A stretch of DNA of 64,000 nt, taken from sequence record NC_031047.1, one strand, 5' to 3'. The translations under genes and the position numbers were made by a program. The notes below the pieces were generated by a model. That model was not told the DNA's origin. It searched no databases and saw nothing but the letters and a program-made list of their open reading frames with translations. This DNA comes from Escherichia phage HY03. This document shows positions 24,782 to 59,324 of this stretch, piece after piece (the first letter of the stretch is position 1; every line of letters starts with the position of its first letter).

Positions 24782-28942
<4,161 letters not shown>

Positions 28943-38957: not shown

Positions 38958-38962
38958 AACAA

Positions 38963-38986
38963 AGGGACCTTTCGGTCCCTTTTTAT
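38963..38986. terminator. bidirectional rho-independent terminator (gene 24 / rnlB convergent)
   Basis: Hairpin AGGGACC-TTTC-GGTCCCT flanked by A-run and T-run. Confidence 0.6.
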
Positions 38987-39990
38987 TTAACTTACCAATT
39001 CAATCCAAGCCGGACGAAGTACATCTTGTACCATTTTAACTAATTCCTTTTTAACCAAAGAAGGATTATCTGCTTGAGTTAGAGTAATACCTTCACGAGA
39101 AGTTTCTTCCAAAATATCTTGAACAGTTAGTCCCATCACCTTTCCAAAATCCTTCGAACCAATTTCACCAATTTTAGAAATAACGTTATTTACTCGGTTC
39201 AGTGTAACGTAGCAAGCTAAAATTCCCACCAATTTGTTATCAGCTTCTGATAGTTCAACTTTAGCTTTAATAGGCTTATCAGACTTTTTCTTTTCACTAA
39301 ATTTGGAATTCTTGCATTTGATGGCTACACGATTTCCATTATGAAGCCAAGAAGGATAACAAGGTTTCAATACATATCCTTCAGCGGTAAATACTTCGCC
39401 TTTGGCTTCAGCTTTCCAAACACATTTGTTAGCGTCAACTAATCCAGCATGGTCTACCGTAAAATTATAATCCTGTACGACAGAATCTAAATCATTTGGC
39501 AATTTAATAAGTTCTTCAAATTTACCACGACCTAAAAGTGGAGCCATTTTAAATTTAAATGTATTACAGAATGATTCCATCATATAATCATCGACATAAG
39601 TCACATCACCACTTTCTGTAGTGACAATAATGTCAAATACATAAAAATCTTTACGCCATAATCGACATTCTTCTGAATGCCAGGTCCAGCGAATTCGCCA
39701 AAGACTTGATAAGATACAACCGCTGAGGTTTCCATAATATCTTGTACTGCTTTAATAGAATCTTCGTAATTCTTTAGAATAATTTCATACCCAAAGAAAT
39801 CTTCAGCAGGAAGAATCGGTCCAGTACGTTTAGCGCAAGTTACTTTATCACGCTCAATAATCAATGAGAAATTTGTGCCGTGAATCTTTTCACGAGCTAC
39901 CCACTCCCCACCAGTCAATCCCAAGCTATAAAGTTTTTCAATAAATTTAGAGTTGTAATGATTTTCAAGACTGCTATACTTTTTAAACAT
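38987..39990 (-). pseudogene. rnlB: RNA ligase 2 (rnlB) interrupted by a frameshift
   Basis: ORFs 39601..39990 (129 aa, ligase nucleophile motif KIHGTN) and 38987..39604 (205 aa) together give 334 aa = T4 Rnl2, but the reading frame shifts around 39640-39660. Confidence 0.6.
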
Positions 39991-43065: not shown

Positions 43066-44574
43066 ATGGATATTAAAGTACATTTTCACGACTTCAGTCA
43101 TGTACGCATCGATTGTGAAGAGAGCACGTTCCACGAATTAAGAGATTTCTTTTCGTTTGAGGCCGATGGATATAGATTTAACCCTCGCTTCAGATATGGC
43201 AACTGGGATGGACGAATCCGTCTTTTAGATTATAATCGTCTTCTTCCATTCGGCTTAGTCGGGCAAATTAAAAAGTTCTGTGATAACTTTGGCTATAAAG
43301 CCTGGATTGACCCACAAATTAACGAAAAAGAAGAATTATCAAGAAAAGATTTTGATGAATGGCTTTCTAAATTAGAAATCTATTCAGGAAATAAAAGAAT
43401 TGAACCACACTGGTATCAAAAAGATGCAGTGTTCGAAGGATTAGTTAATCGTCGTAGAATTCTTAATCTTCCAACATCCGCTGGTAAATCGTTAATTCAA
43501 GCTTTGCTTGCGCGATATTATTTGGAAAATTATGAAGGTAAAATTCTTATCATTGTTCCAACAACTGCTCTAACAACTCAGATGGCTGATGACTTCGTTG
43601 ACTATCGTTTATTCAGTCATGCAATGATAAAGAAAATTGGTGGCGGAGCATCAAAAGATGATAAATATAAAAATGATGCACCAGTCGTTGTTGGTACATG
43701 GCAAACTGTAGTAAAACAACCGAAAGAATGGTTCTCACAGTTTGGAATGATGATGAATGATGAATGCCATCTTGCTACAGGAAAAAGTATTTCATCTATC
43801 ATATCAGGTTTAAATAACTGCATGTTCAAATTTGGTCTATCTGGTTCATTACGTGATGGCAAAGCCAATATCATGCAGTATGTTGGAATGTTTGGTGAAA
43901 TATTTAAGCCAGTAACGACTTCTAAGTTAATGGAAGATGGACAAGTAACTGAGCTAAAAATTAATAGTATTTTTCTTCGCTATCCCGATGAGTTCACTAC
44001 TAAATTAAAGGGAAAAACTTATCAAGAAGAAATAAAAATTATTACGGGGCTTAGTAAAAGAAATAAATGGATCGCTAAATTGGCTATTAAGCTTGCACAA
44101 AAAGATGAAAACGCTTTTGTCATGTTTAAACACGTATCGCACGGTAAAGCTATTTTCGATTTAATTAAAAATGAATACGATAAAGTTTATTACGTATCAG
44201 GGGAAGTTGATACCGAAACCCGCAACGTAATGAAAACCTTAGCTGAAAATGGTAAAGGAATAATTATAGTAGCTAGTTATGGTGTATTTTCTACTGGTAT
44301 TTCAGTTAAAAATCTGCATCACGTTGTTTTAGCGCACGGTGTTAAATCAAAAATCATTGTATTACAAACAATCGGTCGTGTATTACGTAAGCATGGTTCT
44401 AAGACAATAGCAACGGTCTGGGACCTCATTGATGACGCGGGCGTAGTTTCTAAATCAAAAACATCTTCTAAAAAATACTCGCATTTAAACTATCTTTTAA
44501 AACATGGACTTGATCGTATTCAGCGTTATGCTGATGAGAAGTTTAATTATGTGATGAAAGAGGTTAAACTTTGA
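43066..44574 (+). CDS. uvsW: UvsW SF2 DNA helicase
   Basis: 502 aa; helicase motifs (PTSAGKS, DECH); T4 UvsW sequence recognised. Confidence 0.9.
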   Translation: MDIKVHFHDFSHVRIDCEESTFHELRDFFSFEADGYRFNPRFRYGNWDGRIRLLDYNRLLPFGLVGQIKKFCDNFGYKAWIDPQINEKEELSRKDFDEWLSKLEIYSGNKRIEPHWYQKDAVFEGLVNRRRILNLPTSAGKSLIQALLARYYLENYEGKILIIVPTTALTTQMADDFVDYRLFSHAMIKKIGGGASKDDKYKNDAPVVVGTWQTVVKQPKEWFSQFGMMMNDECHLATGKSISSIISGLNNCMFKFGLSGSLRDGKANIMQYVGMFGEIFKPVTTSKLMEDGQVTELKINSIFLRYPDEFTTKLKGKTYQEEIKIITGLSKRNKWIAKLAIKLAQKDENAFVMFKHVSHGKAIFDLIKNEYDKVYYVSGEVDTETRNVMKTLAENGKGIIIVASYGVFSTGISVKNLHHVVLAHGVKSKIIVLQTIGRVLRKHGSKTIATVWDLIDDAGVVSKSKTSSKKYSHLNYLLKHGLDRIQRYADEKFNYVMKEVKL

Positions 44575-45263
44575 ATTATAAATTAATATACGATAATTTA
44601 ATTAATAGAGCCCAGAATCGGGCTCGCCTTAATGGATACACTGAAACTCATCATATAATTCCTAGATGTATGGGCGGTACAGATGATAAGTGTAATTTGG
44701 TAGAACTAACAGCTGAAGAGCATTTTATAGCTCATAAACTTTTAGCTAAAATTCATCCAAACCATTACGGTATAATTAAAGCCGTTATATGTATGGGGAT
44801 GAATTCAAAAACTCATGAAAGACACGTTAATAAATCTTACGCCTGGGAACGTCGTAAAATGGCAGAACTTCAATCAGGTGAAGGTAATCCATTTTACGGA
44901 AAACACCATACGGAAGAACATAAACAATATATGTCAAAACTCATGAAAAATCGTCCAATTACGTGGGGAAGTAAAATTAGTAAAACTAAAAGAATGAACC
45001 CAACAAAATGGACTGAAGAAGCTAAAAGATTGCATTCTATCAATCAATCAGGTAAAAATAATGGCATGTATGGAAGGAAACATTCCGCTAAATCTATTCA
45101 GAAAATTAAAGATAACATGCCAGATAATTCAGGAGCTAATAACCCAGCTGCTAAACCTATAGAAGTAAATGGTGTTAAGTATAAATGCATGAAAGATGCT
45201 TCTAAAGCTACTGGATTATCAATGTACAAACTAAGAATACTTAGAAAAACAGTTAATTTATAA
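44571..45263 (+). CDS. HNH homing endonuclease (Mob-type)
   Basis: 230 aa; HNH motif HHIIPRCMGGTDDKCNLVELTAEEHFIAH; N-terminal 65 aa closely parallel ORF 5409..6083. Confidence 0.7.
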   Translation: MNYKLIYDNLINRAQNRARLNGYTETHHIIPRCMGGTDDKCNLVELTAEEHFIAHKLLAKIHPNHYGIIKAVICMGMNSKTHERHVNKSYAWERRKMAELQSGEGNPFYGKHHTEEHKQYMSKLMKNRPITWGSKISKTKRMNPTKWTEEAKRLHSINQSGKNNGMYGRKHSAKSIQKIKDNMPDNSGANNPAAKPIEVNGVKYKCMKDASKATGLSMYKLRILRKTVNL

Positions 45264-45276
45264 GGGCTTCGGCCCT

Positions 45277-45519
45277 TTGGAGAAAAAGATGTTACTAGAA
45301 TTTAAACAATTTCTTTATGAAGCTTCTATTGATGAATTTATGGGTAAAATTGCCTCTTGCCAAACATTAGAAGGTCTAGAAGAACTTGAAGCTTATTACA
45401 AGAAAAGAGTTAAAGAAACTGAATTAAAAGATACTGATGACATCTCTGTGAGAGATGCTTTGGCAGGAAAAAGAGCTGAATTAGAAGATTCAGACGATGA
45501 AGTAGAAGAAAGCTTTTAA
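45277..45519 (+). CDS. uvsW.1: UvsW.1-like small acidic protein
   Basis: 80 aa; position downstream of uvsW (here separated from it by the HNH gene). Confidence 0.6.
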   Translation: MEKKMLLEFKQFLYEASIDEFMGKIASCQTLEGLEELEAYYKKRVKETELKDTDDISVRDALAGKRAELEDSDDEVEESF

Positions 45520-53920: not shown

Positions 53921-54208
53921 TTTGCGGAATGAAATGAAAGCAGAAACTGAAGCAACTAAACTGTCTTCAATATAAACTTCAATTTTTACCGGAGCTTCTG
54001 ACTCAAATTTACCTGTTACTACACCCTGAAAAATACTTTCAGTCTGTTCTGGCTTTGAAAAATTTTCAGAAGGAAAAATTCCGAACTTTTTATCTGTTCC
54101 AAAAATTTTAATAAATTCATCGTAAACCGCTTCGTTAAAAGCATTATCAGCAGGAATAACGCCTTCAACTACAAGTTCTTGACCTAAAAAGCGTAAAGAA
54201 GATTTCAT
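53918..54208 (-). CDS. hypothetical protein (96 aa)
   Basis: Minus-strand ORF convergent with gene 54. Confidence 0.45.
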   Translation of the reverse strand: MKSSLRFLGQELVVEGVIPADNAFNEAVYDEFIKIFGTDKKFGIFPSENFSKPEQTESIFQGVVTGKFESEAPVKIEVYIEDSLVASVSAFISFRK

Positions 54209-54636
54209 TTTGTGTTCCTCATGTTATGTCAGTAAGACTACTATAACACAACACGAGGGACTTGTAAACTACATTTTGAACTTTTTAGTACGCGTAATAG
54301 GCATGCGTCGATTTTATACTGTTTCATTGTTTGAAGAGCAGTATCAAAAACAGCATTAATGACACCAATTGGATTTCCACCCAAGTTTTTAAGCTTAACT
54401 AATGATAGTTTCTAGTTTCTCATTAACACCTATCATTACGATATGCATCATTTTGTCGCCTGGTTTAACGTTTTATCTGTATCACCGCCAGAGGTGTATG
54501 TACAAAATCTAAATCCAGGAAGCACGCTTTCTTCGCCGGCTTGAATAGCAAAAATTTGTGGTATTTTATGCTTAGGATTTAAGTTAACAACCGGCGCCGA
54601 AGCGCCGTCAAATAATTATGTAATAAGTTCCATGAT

Positions 54637-55281
54637 TTATCCTTGAACGAACTTGTAAGGCATGTTTGCAATATCTATGCAAGACGCAATAATTCCAAGA
54701 GATGATTCTACTTTCTGTTTAACATTTGATGAAACAAATGATGCAAAGTCAACTCTGTCTTCTATTTCAATATCACCTGTCATTGCAACTACTTCACCAG
54801 TTTCCATTAGACGGTCACCGTCATAAATTACTGATTCGGTGAGTTCTTCCGTAGTCATAACTTCAGCTTGAATGAGTTTTGTATTATTAAATGTTGTTCC
54901 GTCATTATTAGAAGCATCAGTTATTTTATTAACTTTGACCATCAATCCACGTGGTAGAATAACTTCAGCTTCTGTTGCTATTCCGAGACTTCCTGGATAT
55001 ACAACATTAACTTTATGAGCTCCATCAATTGCCCATCCTATTTGAACTTTAACGTATTCAGGATTTTCTTTATACGCTCTTATTTCGTTTGGATTAATAG
55101 TTATTCCTTCTTCATTTTTATCAACTGTCAATTCATTACGAGCTTCTGGTTCTAAAAGACCGATACCAGCATGTGTAATTCCAAAACGTCCAAAAATGAT
55201 AGGAGTTAAAGAAGTAGATACAAAATTTCTGAAATAGAACACTTTATTTTTAACTAATGCTTCGTATATAGGAGCAGTCAA
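54637..55281 (-). CDS. ADP-ribosyltransferase-like protein, apparently N-terminally truncated (Alt/Mod-like)
   Basis: 214-aa ORF from a TTG start; STS motif (FVSTSLTP) and E-x-E (TEAEV) about 90 aa later, but no upstream Arg-motif region; in-frame stop 5 codons upstream. Confidence 0.4.
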   Translation of the reverse strand: MTAPIYEALVKNKVFYFRNFVSTSLTPIIFGRFGITHAGIGLLEPEARNELTVDKNEEGITINPNEIRAYKENPEYVKVQIGWAIDGAHKVNVVYPGSLGIATEAEVILPRGLMVKVNKITDASNNDGTTFNNTKLIQAEVMTTEELTESVIYDGDRLMETGEVVAMTGDIEIEDRVDFASFVSSNVKQKVESSLGIIASCIDIANMPYKFVQG

Positions 55282-55282
55282 T

Positions 55283-55633
55283 ATGAAAGGTAATGTTTAT
55301 TTAGTAGTTCATGATTTAACATTCTATTTTAATCATAATGATACTGTTATTTCTGAACGTGTAATTAATTTGCTTTATCAGCATGCAGATTATGTTTATG
55401 TCGAAAACGAATATGGTCATTGGCAATTTCTCAAAAATCGTTCATTTGGTTTAGATGGTTACGAATATTTTGATCGTAAAGACCTTTTAGATACAATTCC
55501 GTTATCTACACAATATCAAAATCATAAGTCTTTACATAAATGCCGGCTAATTCGAAATGCTGAATCCGCGTATGAAGCAATTGATTTATGGCGTAAACGC
55601 CGTGAACAGATTGATGCTTTAAAAGAATATTAA
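55283..55633 (+). CDS. hypothetical protein (116 aa)
   Basis: ORF with Shine-Dalgarno GGAG before ATG; begins at the synteny breakpoint. Confidence 0.5.
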   Translation: MKGNVYLVVHDLTFYFNHNDTVISERVINLLYQHADYVYVENEYGHWQFLKNRSFGLDGYEYFDRKDLLDTIPLSTQYQNHKSLHKCRLIRNAESAYEAIDLWRKRREQIDALKEY

Positions 55634-55639
55634 GAAACC

Positions 55640-55995
55640 GGGTCGCTACCGGTAAGTCGTCGGACTGATGTTCCCTGGAGTATAGTTTCCTCCCACAGTT
55701 TTACTGTGTTCTGGCTCTTTACTATTACAGCAGAAACGGCGCACCGAATTATCGATTCGAGGAAATATCTTTGCCATAAGCCGAGTAGCGTTTTTGACGG
55801 AACGTTCGGATATGGTCGAGATATGGCCTTTTAAAAATATTGAGTAGCGTCAACTACTTAATAACCGGGTTCAAATCCCGGCGTTTCGTACAAACACTTG
55901 CCTTAGCAGGTGGAACCCCGACAAGGTTGCCGCAAGGCTTAGCCCTGACCGAAAGGTTGGGGCTTTTTAGTTTGAATCACTCAGAGAATGCTGTT
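55640..55995 (+). ncRNA. candidate structured small-RNA locus
   Basis: About 400 bp with no ORF of 60 aa or more; tRNA-like T-arm CCGGG-TTCAAAT-CCCGG (55864-55880); terminal hairpin CCCTGACC-GAAA-GGTTGGGG plus T-run (55951-55976). Confidence 0.25.
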
Positions 55996-56043
55996 ACGGA
56001 TAATAAATAATTAATAACCAATAAATTATTTCAAGGATTTTAA

Positions 56044-56607
56044 ATGAAAACCTATGCCGAATTTTTAACTGAAGCAGCAAAATTACCATCTGAAGCAGAT
56101 CTTACTAAAGTATTCTTCCACTTGGACCCAAAAGACCGGGGCGATTTTCTTAAGTGGAAAGCTAAAGCTATTGAAATGTATAACATCGATAACAGTTCTT
56201 TTACGATGAGCCAAGAAAATAGTTTCAATAAAGCATTTTTCAAAATTTCTAAGAAATTGGCATCTGGCGCTCAGGTTTCTAAATCTGCATTAGCTACTCC
56301 TGAACGTGCACCTGTTAAAATTTCTAAGAATATGTTTGACACTAAAAAATATGTCAATGCTTTGAATAAAGCTCTTGATGCATTGGATGATGCAAAGAAG
56401 GCAGCCCGCGATCTTCAAGACGTGTATACCGATTTTGATCGTAAAACTAAAGGTTCTATTTCAAATAGCGAACGCAATAGTGTAAGTGTTTATTCTGATA
56501 GCCTTGATGTTCTTGGCGATGCATATACTGAAATTAAAAATCGTATTAACACCGCATCTAAGCTAAAAGCTGCTGCAGAAGCTATAATAACTAAACTAGG
56601 TAAATAA
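56044..56607 (+). CDS. internal-protein-like capsid-targeted protein
   Basis: 187 aa; N-terminal MKTYAEFLTE|A matches the T4 capsid targeting sequence cleaved by gp21. Confidence 0.6.
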   Translation: MKTYAEFLTEAAKLPSEADLTKVFFHLDPKDRGDFLKWKAKAIEMYNIDNSSFTMSQENSFNKAFFKISKKLASGAQVSKSALATPERAPVKISKNMFDTKKYVNALNKALDALDDAKKAARDLQDVYTDFDRKTKGSISNSERNSVSVYSDSLDVLGDAYTEIKNRINTASKLKAAAEAIITKLGK

Positions 56608-56615
56608 TTTTAAAT

Positions 56616-56640
56616 CCCTATCTAAATGATAGGGCTTTTT
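56616..56640 (+). terminator. rho-independent terminator
   Basis: Hairpin CCCTATC-TAAATG-ATAGGG followed by CTTTTT. Confidence 0.55.
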
Positions 56641-56762
56641 GGTATCTAGGCCTTTCCGGGCCTCTCTAGGCATCATTTAGTTTATATCCTTTATAATATA
56701 TTATCCTACCTTTTAATTGCCCCTCCCCGCCCTAAAATTCCCTAAAAATTTTTCACAAAACT

Positions 56763-56792
56763 GTTTACATCCCTGTTCTTCTATGGTACTAT
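56763..56792 (+). promoter_or_regulatory. T4 early-type promoter
   Basis: -35 GTTTAC, 18-bp spacer, -10 TACTAT, upstream of ORF 56836. Confidence 0.55.
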
Positions 56793-56835
56793 ATCAATAT
56801 CAACTACTGATACAGAAAACAACTTGGAGAATAAA

Positions 56836-57099
56836 ATGGATAATTACGGTGAACTGTTCAACTTCTTTATGAAATGTGTTTCAGAAGATTTCGGTCGTAC
56901 AGTGAATGATATTAAAGTTATCGGTCCTGATCATCCGATGTTTGAAACTTACGCAGTAATGGGTAATGAAGATGGTCAGTGGTATACTGTAAAGGTTGTG
57001 ATTAACATGTTCACTGCTGAAGGTTATGTTAAACTGTCTTCTAAAGTTTACCATGATAACGATGAAATCGCAGAAGAATATTTCAATAATATGAAATAA
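56836..57099 (+). CDS. hypothetical protein
   Basis: ORF 56824..57099; ATG at 56836 preceded by GGAGA. Confidence 0.5.
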   Translation: MDNYGELFNFFMKCVSEDFGRTVNDIKVIGPDHPMFETYAVMGNEDGQWYTVKVVINMFTAEGYVKLSSKVYHDNDEIAEEYFNNMK

Positions 57100-57167
57100 T
57101 TGTGTACAAACACCAAGGACGGTGTTATTATAGACTTATCAAAACAAATACAGAAACGGAGAAATAA

Positions 57168-57332
57168 ATGACTACTTTAATTATTTGGTTTGACGAAAAT
57201 GAAGAAACATACTGCGTGAACATTGGCGAAAGCCCAATGCCAGAATTTGAATCTTCGGATAAAAACTCGGTTGTATCTTGGGCTGAAGGTTATAAAGCAG
57301 CAAAAGGCGATGTTGAAATAGTTTACAAATAA
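57168..57332 (+). CDS. small hypothetical protein (54 aa)
   Basis: Below the 60-aa cutoff of the ORF track; ATG preceded by ACGGAGAAATAA; fills an otherwise empty 270-bp gap. Confidence 0.4.
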   Translation: MTTLIIWFDENEETYCVNIGESPMPEFESSDKNSVVSWAEGYKAAKGDVEIVYK

Positions 57333-57375
57333 TACTCTTATGGATTTTAAATCTTAATTAACCTAAGGAAATACT

Positions 57376-57969
57376 ATGAACACACTGAAGAAAATTGTTG
57401 AGTTTATTCGCACTAAACTTGGTTCTGCTATGGCTAAAAATTTATCCGTTGAAGAACAGTATACTGCTGCGGCAGCAAAACTACTTGATAAGATTAAAGA
57501 TCTAAAAACTGCTTCTGTTAAATCTATTAATGAAGAAAAGCGTATTCGTGAACTTATTGTCGAAAAGAATAAGCAGGCCGAATCAAAAGAGCGTGAAATT
57601 CGCAAGCTTCTTTCTGAAGGTCAAGATGTAACAATGCATGCTAAACTTGGTTTGCTATATCGTCGAACAGCTGAACAGTTGACTACTAAAGCTGATGGTT
57701 ATGCTGAAATGCGAATTGAAATCGCCAAGAAAGTAGTTGAGTTAGATGATGCTCGCCAAGAACTTGCAGTTAAATTGGAATATATCCGTGAAACTCGTGC
57801 AGCAAATGCCCTTGGAATTAGTACTGCTGATGATGTAGTTGAAATTGCAGCGCTGACTAAGGTTGATATTGAAGATACTCTTGCTCGAGTTGAAACCTTT
57901 AATGGTAATATTTCTGGGGTTGAAACTACCTCTGCCGATGTTCAGGAATACATTAATTCTCTGAAATAA
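57376..57969 (+). CDS. hypothetical coiled-coil protein (197 aa)
   Basis: Lys/Glu-rich helical sequence; hairpin GGGGCTTAGGCCCC downstream. Confidence 0.5.
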
Positions 57970-58010
57970 TGATAAGGGGCTTAGGCCCCTATTACTTGGA
58001 GTAAATAGGA

Positions 58011-58619
58011 ATGAAAATGCAAAGTGATTTCAATTCAATGTTTGAAGAGTTCCAAAGACAGGTTGATGTTCCAGACCAATTGCTAAATGCTCTTAAACGC
58101 ATGGCAGAAGGACGTAATTATTATTGGGGTTCTTCATATGAAACAGACGAAAGCCTTTCTGGAAGATTTTCCAGAGGTAAAAAGTCTTTAATACGTCCTG
58201 GAATACTTATTAACAGTATTGAATCAATTTATTCATTGACATGCGATTTTGATGTTGAATTTACTGATTTCATTTCTCCTGAATGGACAGTTTGTTATTT
58301 AAACGACGATTTTGATTATCTCGGTGTTTATAGTTTAAGTGACGCATGGTTTAAACGTAACTTACAAAAGTCAAATTTATTCTATATTGATACTACAGTA
58401 AAATTTCAGGGAAAGAAATATTTCTTTACTCTTATAGTTGATTCTGAAACGAAGCATGAAAATAAACGTATTCTTAGTAAAAGAAATATCTTGAATATTG
58501 TTGATGATCTTTTTGATAAATTAGTGGAAAATCCTAATTTTGAAAGTGATTTATTACTAGAAAAATTTGTTAAGGAATGTAGAGAATATGTCAAAACCAT
58601 CACTATACCTTCCAAGTAA
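58011..58619 (+). CDS. hypothetical protein (202 aa)
   Basis: First of four consecutive ORFs sharing a C-terminal F-x-x-E-C-R-K/E motif. Confidence 0.5.
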   Translation: MKMQSDFNSMFEEFQRQVDVPDQLLNALKRMAEGRNYYWGSSYETDESLSGRFSRGKKSLIRPGILINSIESIYSLTCDFDVEFTDFISPEWTVCYLNDDFDYLGVYSLSDAWFKRNLQKSNLFYIDTTVKFQGKKYFFTLIVDSETKHENKRILSKRNILNIVDDLFDKLVENPNFESDLLLEKFVKECREYVKTITIPSK

Positions 58620-58980
58620 ACCGTTGAAGTATGAATTAAAGCGTCAGATAATTTCTACTGATGTATTAATAGGTCCTGTTATACTTATATCATTTGTAAT
58701 TCTATTGATTATTGGAGGTGTTTTAGATGTTATGACTGATATTGATTCTGGCGAAATACTTGTGTTAATGCTAATTCTTCCATTAATAGTTCCATTTTTA
58801 TTAGTACCTATAAATTGGGTAGGATACTGGTATCAAGGAAGGCATTATCGTAAACGTGTACGTGATTGGAAAGCACAGTGTAAAAAGATTAAAAAGGAAC
58901 ACCAGCTTAAACTTGCTGCGTATGAATTTGATGAAATTATGAAATTTGTTAAGGAATCACGATGCAAAAGCCAAAACTAA
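58588..58980 (+). CDS. small membrane protein (two predicted TM helices)
   Basis: ORF 58567..58980; probable start MSKPSLY with RBS; hydrophobic stretches VILISFVILLIIGGVL and ILVLMLILPLIVPFLLVPI. Confidence 0.5.
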   Translation: MSKPSLYLPSKPLKYELKRQIISTDVLIGPVILISFVILLIIGGVLDVMTDIDSGEILVLMLILPLIVPFLLVPINWVGYWYQGRHYRKRVRDWKAQCKKIKKEHQLKLAAYEFDEIMKFVKESRCKSQN

Positions 58981-59324
58981 ATAAAGTCAAATATTCGCTT
59001 CCTGAGTCATTTTTAATTTTTGCTGTGGCGTTGGCTGCAGCTCTTGCAGGTAGTATTTTTGGATTGTTAATTGACTGTCTTATTTTAAACATCGACGACA
59101 CAGTAAATATAACAGAAGTTTGGAGTGAGCTTTGTTATACTAAAATTATTTCATTGTTTTCATTCTTTGGTACAATGTTATATTTTCATTATGATAATTT
59201 TAAAATAAATTGGCAAAGAAAAAAGGATTACAAAATACAATTAAAAGAATATAACAACTACGTGTCTTATATTGAAAAAGAATCAATGGAAGAGTTTGTG
59301 AGTGATTGTAGGAAAATCAAATGA
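58962..59324 (+). CDS. small membrane protein
   Basis: 120 aa; hydrophobic N-terminal segments; C-terminal ...EEFVSDCRKIK. Confidence 0.5.
   Translation: MQKPKLNKVKYSLPESFLIFAVALAAALAGSIFGLLIDCLILNIDDTVNITEVWSELCYTKIISLFSFFGTMLYFHYDNFKINWQRKKDYKIQLKEYNNYVSYIEKESMEEFVSDCRKIK

Follow-up and report, generated by a model that had tools for sequence, protein, structure and literature searches.

A single-base deletion interrupts the RNA ligase 2 gene (rnlB) in the genome record of the T4-like phage HY03

The rnlB locus and its two reading frames

Escherichia phage HY03 is a T4-like phage (Tequatrovirus), and the window analyzed here, a stretch of 64,000 nucleotides from its record NC_031047.1, holds gene 24, rnlB, 24.2, 24.3 and hoc in an order that matches T4, as seen from synteny as well as from orthology at the nucleotide level (table 1). 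The hairpin that separates rnlB from gene 24 is the same element that is annotated as a terminator in phage DalCa. In place of one continuous frame of ~334 aa, the rnlB locus holds two adjacent minus-strand ORFs of 129 aa, with the KIHGTN motif, and 205 aa, exactly as a first-pass annotation made from the letters of the window had described them. Their lengths were noted there to sum to 334 aa; this holds, and it does so because the TGA of the first ORF overlaps the GTG of the second as GTGA (39604-39601). The public annotation already lists both fragments as separate proteins, HY03_0045 and HY03_0044, and both products are on record from one HY03 contig of 170,770 bp only; in an assembly index, the 129-aa product was absent from the called genes.

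The first-pass annotation had also named the locus as the gene for T4 RNA ligase 2 (Rnl2), and this is borne out by structure matches, domain searches and alignments. The 129-aa product matches PDB 2HVQ and 1S68 (E about 1e-72) over residues 1-119/120, and it contains the lysine nucleophile of motif I (KxHGxN, Lys35), aligned to that of 2HVQ; motifs Ia (Arg55) and III (Glu99) lie on the same polypeptide, the residues 1-112 of which are identical or near-identical to T4 Rnl2. In Pfam, positions 2-81 of the RNA_ligase profile (PF09414) fall in the 129-aa ORF, whereas the 205-aa ORF takes up positions 103-170 (below the cut-off) together with T4_Rnl2_C (PF18043, at 7.8e-24); positions 82-102 are covered by neither ORF. 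A tblastn search of the window with T4 RnlB places residues 1-116 in frame -2 and residues 114-334 in frame -1. Judged by these comparisons, the gene at this locus is rnlB itself and not a relative of it, and, as written, it is a disrupted allele.

Table 1. Positions in the window of the rnlB features and of further genes mentioned in the text.
Feature	Position	Strand	Remarks
rnlB locus (orthologue of T4 gene 24.1, RNA ligase 2)	38987-39990	minus	1004 nt versus the usual 1005
129-aa ORF	39601-39990	minus	Carries AREKIHGTN, so Lys35 is present
Authentic N-terminal coding part, residues 1-112	39655-39990	minus	Motif I Lys35, motif Ia Arg55, motif III Glu99
Deletion site	between 39654 and 39653	minus	A of codon Asp113 (GAT) absent
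17 out-of-frame codons closing the 129-aa ORF	39604-39654	minus	From translation
Codons 114-129, including motif IIIa Phe119/Asp120	39605-39652	minus	In the downstream frame, upstream of any start codon
Premature TGA of the 129-aa ORF	39601-39603	minus	Overlaps the GTG at 39604-39602 as GTGA
205-aa ORF	38987-39604	minus	Starts at the GTG of Val130 inside the gene and covers residues 130-334, with motifs IV and V and the C-terminal domain
Bidirectional terminator-like hairpin	38961-38982		Between convergent rnlB and gene 24; from a terminator scan
tRNA-Arg(tct)	7-83
Free-standing HNH ORF, 210 aa	1298-1930	minus	Between tRNA-Leu and trna.2
Gene 17 in three ORFs	26087-28939	plus
Gene 17, ORF 1	26087-26980	plus
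Gene 17, ORF 2	26967-27566	plus
Gene 17, ORF 3	27554-28939	plus
Free-standing HNH ORF, 218 aa	30951-31607	plus	Between genes 18 and 19
uvsW	43066-45519	plus	Split into ORFs of 502 aa and 80 aa
HNH endonuclease ORF, 230 aa	44571-45263		Splits uvsW
Truncated alt	54637-55281	minus	About residues 486-682
116-aa ORF	55283-55633		Abuts the truncated alt

The one-base deletion and its relatives

A megablast search with the rnlB locus found 684 phage records, the best matches among which are Shigella phage S2_01 (OP137232) and the four phages EC.W2-1, EC.W5-4, EC.W15-4 and EC.W15-3, all with 99.9% identity over 1102 nt against 1101 nt in HY03. The S2_01 gene, which was checked directly, keeps the A and encodes an intact 334-aa ligase (WHL25993.1), and each of the EC.W phages has a single RNA ligase by annotation. 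Pairwise alignment of HY03 with S2_01 reveals one missing A, GGCG[A]TAAAG, as the sole difference in 1101 nt, through which GGCGATAAAG has become GGCGTAAAG with the loss of a base from the codon for Asp113; the same single gap is placed in the alignments to S2_01, ACG-C40, DalCa and T4. The deleted A is flanked by G and T and does not lie in a homopolymer. Its re-insertion in silico yields a 334-aa ORF that is 100% identical to the S2_01 protein, and the restoration of such an ORF argues that the deletion pattern is not due to chance. A single-base deletion near GATTATGGCGTAAAG had been proposed in the first-pass annotation with reference to a stretch of T4 Rnl2, NVDYCDKDF: this stretch is correct for NC_000866, the comparison with T4 rnlB DNA that was suggested there gives the same single gap, and the alignments and the restored ORF confirm the deletion.

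With the A restored, HY03 Rnl2 corresponds to T4 RnlB (gene 24.1; NP_049790; PDB 2HVQ, 1S68) in gene, in position between gene 24 and 24.2 and in length, and differs from it at 6 of 334 residues (A76E, C112G, N193K, R217H, P279S, I313V). Unlike T4 RnlB, the HY03 gene as written is without one base in codon 113, so that no continuous 334-aa product is encoded. It should be noted that residue 112 is Cys in T4 NC_000866 but Gly in 2HVQ, HY03 (codon 39655-39657), S2_01 and nearly all sampled homologues, a minor mismatch between the T4 reference genome and the structural construct.

The distribution of the deletion was assessed with a 61-nt query spanning the junction, which matched 454 phage records; all 454 align with 62 nt and keep the base. 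None of these matches lies in the band of at least 99% identity, and HY03's own record is seemingly outside the phage collection behind this count, where no end-to-end match of at least 99% identity was found for positions 1-25000, 27001-52000 and 54000-59000 of the window. Exact scans with the junction 23-mer found it absent from viral, metagenome and genome collections, but the wild-type 24-mer used as a control matched only one viral contig, and the negative results of these scans therefore have little power; the BLAST comparison with 454 records is the stronger test of privacy. On this sequence evidence, the deletion is private to HY03.

Disruption of rnlB as such is not restricted to HY03: in at least six other T4-like records, with genomes that are otherwise normal, the gene is split into two or more ORFs. 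These include W215* (TGG to TGA) in ACG-C40, a nonsense mutation at codon 283 in DalCa and a 77-nt insertion at codon 42 in BYEP02, all three annotated with two RNA ligase ORFs, as well as two 2-nt deletions in SV76, where RnlB and hypothetical proteins are annotated, and 1-nt indels at codons 222 and 99 in the IMG/VR loci L036 and L042, respectively. The positions and the types of mutation differ, and these disruptions are independent events. Base-calling errors are an unlikely source of nonsense substitutions and of a 77-nt insertion, so in some phages the loss of rnlB is real. In the samples inspected, the gene is disrupted in about 2-5% of records; ~95% of the relatives keep it intact, indicating that it is normally under selection.

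Further interrupted genes and the orientation of the record

Gene 17, encoding the large terminase, is found in three ORFs (table 1). The first encodes gp17 residues 1-256 up to the Walker B site (MIYIDE/C), continues into the intein sequence CVAKDT and stops after 41 aa; the second, in a different frame, encodes a 199-aa TnsA-like (PF08722) endonuclease; and the third opens with a 107-aa leader ending in ESHN, after which gp17 resumes at CAFIPNF, residue 257. A fusion of the flanking intein pieces matches PDB 6DSL_B, "Consensus engineered intein CatC" (E = 2.8e-12), a member of the AceL/GOS-TerL family, whose atypically split inteins are known from metagenomes (PMC11766414). The annotation of pSe_SNUABM_01 shows an identical arrangement of three ORFs, and about a dozen cultured T4-like phages carry the insert, including SG1, JEP6, PD112, CE1, phiR1-RT, TG1 and PspYZU05, with hosts in Escherichia, Salmonella, Shigella, Yersinia and Pseudomonas. 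Its presence in about a dozen T4-like phages indicates that the insert is real and not an artefact of HY03, and from this coding arrangement an essential gene of cultivable coliphages seems to be dependent on protein trans-splicing.

HNH endonuclease ORFs are inserted elsewhere in the window. One of these splits uvsW, and several relatives are likewise annotated with two helicase ORFs at this gene. Another is free-standing and separates gene 18 from gene 19, which in S2_01 and T4 are set apart by only a short spacer, and a further free-standing one, flanked by tRNA-Leu and trna.2, is found where tRNA-Gln stands in T4 and G4498; no tRNA-Gln is among the 7 tRNAs detected in the window with ARAGORN. 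Gene 67, for which 50 of 80 residues were matched, was considered as a second frameshift and rejected: its 79-aa ORF is intact, and the partial match is due to an acidic tail of low complexity.

With the two rnlB fragments numbered as genes 44 and 45, the window apparently begins at the start of the record. Toward its other end, the truncated alt abuts a 116-aa ORF that follows tRNA-Arg(tct) in G4498, whereas the tRNA-Arg(tct) of the window is found close to position 1 (table 1), and from 55283 on the T4 genes e.8 to e.4 run opposite to the rest of the window. The junction 55281/55283 is spanned by 0 of 762 related records. The probable explanation for the first ~55,281 nt of the HY03 record is a contig that was put in backwards during assembly; a genuine inversion of 55 kb in HY03 is less likely.

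Consequences for the enzyme and origin of the allele

All six catalytic motifs of T4 Rnl2 (I, Ia, III, IIIa, IV and V) lie in the adenylyltransferase domain (residues 1-243); Lys35 is the nucleophile, Glu99 belongs to motif III, Glu204 to motif IV and Lys225/Lys227 to motif V, and Phe119 of motif IIIa is in contact with the AMP adenine (PMC3149579). The break at codon 113 parts motifs I-III from IV-V and removes IIIa: the 129-aa ORF is made up of residues 1-112 and 17 wrong-frame residues, motifs IV and V and the C-terminal domain of Rnl2 are confined to the separate 205-aa ORF, and by frame analysis residues 113-129, including motif IIIa, are encoded by neither. The lost segment, VDYG[D/E]KDFYVFD, is strongly conserved in 36 intact IMG/VR homologues, which are 41-100% identical to the query. 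Translation would start normally and produce residues 1-112 with motifs I, Ia and III, then add 17 wrong residues and end at the TGA, leaving motifs IIIa, IV and V and the C-terminal domain unattached to the N-terminal fragment. This fragment would be unable to form the adenylyltransferase fold, so that no active Rnl2 would be expected from HY03, and the 205-aa ORF would be a remnant read from an internal GTG and not a gene in its own right. The engineered T4 Rnl2(1-249) is likewise an N-terminal fragment, but it retains the adenylyltransferase domain in full, with its six motifs, and shows activity in steps 1 and 3 (PMC3149579), whereas the authentic sequence of the HY03 fragment stops at residue 112 and is without motifs IIIa, IV and V. 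As written, HY03 rnlB is predicted to be a null allele, and the "RNA ligase" entries of 129 aa and 205 aa are best read as fragments of one disrupted gene rather than as separate proteins.

Among the outcomes that the first-pass annotation had listed, a pseudogene, a sequencing error and a genuinely split ligase, the last has to be given up. It would have both products made, by termination-reinitiation at the GTGA, and assembled into an active two-subunit Rnl2, in keeping with the stop/start overlap, with GGTGAT just upstream, and with the motifs I, Ia, III, IV and V and the C-terminal domain that the two ORFs jointly carry. However, this GTG is no more than codon Val130 of the wild-type gene, the break falls within the adenylyltransferase domain (1-243) and not between domains, Pfam profile positions 82-102 are covered by neither product, and the split is seen in 0 of 454 relatives and 0 of 38 IMG/VR loci; because residues 113-129 with motif IIIa are in neither product, 17 unrelated residues being found instead, a working two-piece ligase is not credible, and we regard this outcome as exceedingly improbable. 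It is also very unlikely that a real deletion is leakily rescued, with ribosomes slipping by -1 at the new A_AAG (GUA AAG), or at the U_UUU just after it, to make some full-length Asp113Val Rnl2, such that the phage is not fully null. The 0 frame after the deletion reads GGC GUA AAG AUU UUU and the correct frame is indeed the -1 frame, no tetramer in E. coli is more prone to shifting than A_AA.G (PMC4066793), and a modest hairpin (-17.2 kcal/mol, z = -2.07) begins about 5 nt downstream. The HY03 A_AAG thus stands just after the deletion in the same frame relation as the tetramer-type -1 sites (A_AA.G) of E. coli IS elements, but unlike those sites it comes without a heptamer (no X_XXY_YYZ is found, the site offering the tetramers A_AAG and U_UUU only), without a strong stimulator and without conservation, and its expected efficiency is about background. 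Tetramers that have no strong stimulator shift at background (0.147% vs 0.112%), and 5.6% shifting was reached only with the IS3 pseudoknot (PMC4066793). The hairpin, moreover, is native to all wild-type alleles and folds weakly better than shuffled sequences (9 of 200 shuffled versions fold equally well or better), the gene is un-shifted in all 454 related records, and, the allele being private, no selection for recoding is possible. A trace of full-length Asp113Val Rnl2 may be made, but nothing suggests that it would be of importance.

The pseudogene and the sequencing error both stand, with the evidence leaning moderately toward a real mutation. In the event of a consensus or assembly error, the phage would have an intact 334-aa rnlB, and the A would be missing only in the deposited record. 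That the allele is unique against the 454 related records would fit such an error, as would the absence of its junction 23-mer from the low-power scans and the 100% identity of the rest of the gene to the intact allele; this identity means that HY03 rnlB shows no sign of decay, as would be expected of either an error or a very young mutation. The apparently mis-oriented 55.3-kb segment suggests limited finishing and lowers trust in the curation of the record. The 454 platform is prone to indel errors; these concentrate in homopolymers, and as the deleted base is not in a homopolymer, the rnlB site is atypical for an error of this type. The platform was used, with assembly in Newbler, for the sister phage HY01, apparently from the same originating laboratory (PMC5201272), and HY03 may have been sequenced in the same way. 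Against an error in the record stands also the rest of the assembly. HY03 and S2_01 share 99.56% identity over 10,828 aligned nt; they differ by 47 mismatches and a single gap, the rnlB deletion itself. No gap is present in the 4,045 nt aligned to G4498 or the 3,798 nt aligned to pSe_SNUABM_01; the rnlB deletion is the sole indel in 18.7 kb aligned to relatives at 98.0-99.6% identity. By tblastn, rnlB is also the only T4 homologue in the window whose match changes frame. With no other indel or frame break, consensus indel errors are indicated to be rare in the HY03 assembly, and the chance that the sole error would fall into one given 1-kb gene is small compared with the roughly 2-5% rnlB disruption among relatives. 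We take an error in the record to be a serious possibility, but on balance a doubtful one.

The reading that we favor, and hold to be fairly probable, is that rnlB of HY03 is a real and very recent null allele, generated by a private single-base deletion; that the base is absent from the DNA of the phage, and not only from the record, is what we infer here. The loss would have been tolerated because rnlB was dispensable under the growth conditions used. Frameshifts of a single base are routine in dispensable, well-characterised genes, and the HY03 allele, whether a knock-out or a sequence error, is an ordinary one and not a new type of split enzyme.

The role of Rnl2 in T4 infection is listed as unknown (PMC3884662). 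If the deletion is real, HY03 and S2_01 would be a natural near-isogenic pair at rnlB for asking what role Rnl2 has in infection. More speculatively, and with rather low probability, HY03 may be one of at least seven independent natural rnlB knock-outs, with Rnl2 being a conditionally dispensable counter-defence enzyme that is repeatedly lost on hosts without a matching RNA-nicking defence; if this were true, comparing the host ranges of the natural nulls with those of near-identical intact relatives (e.g., HY03 vs S2_01) could point to the in vivo target of Rnl2.
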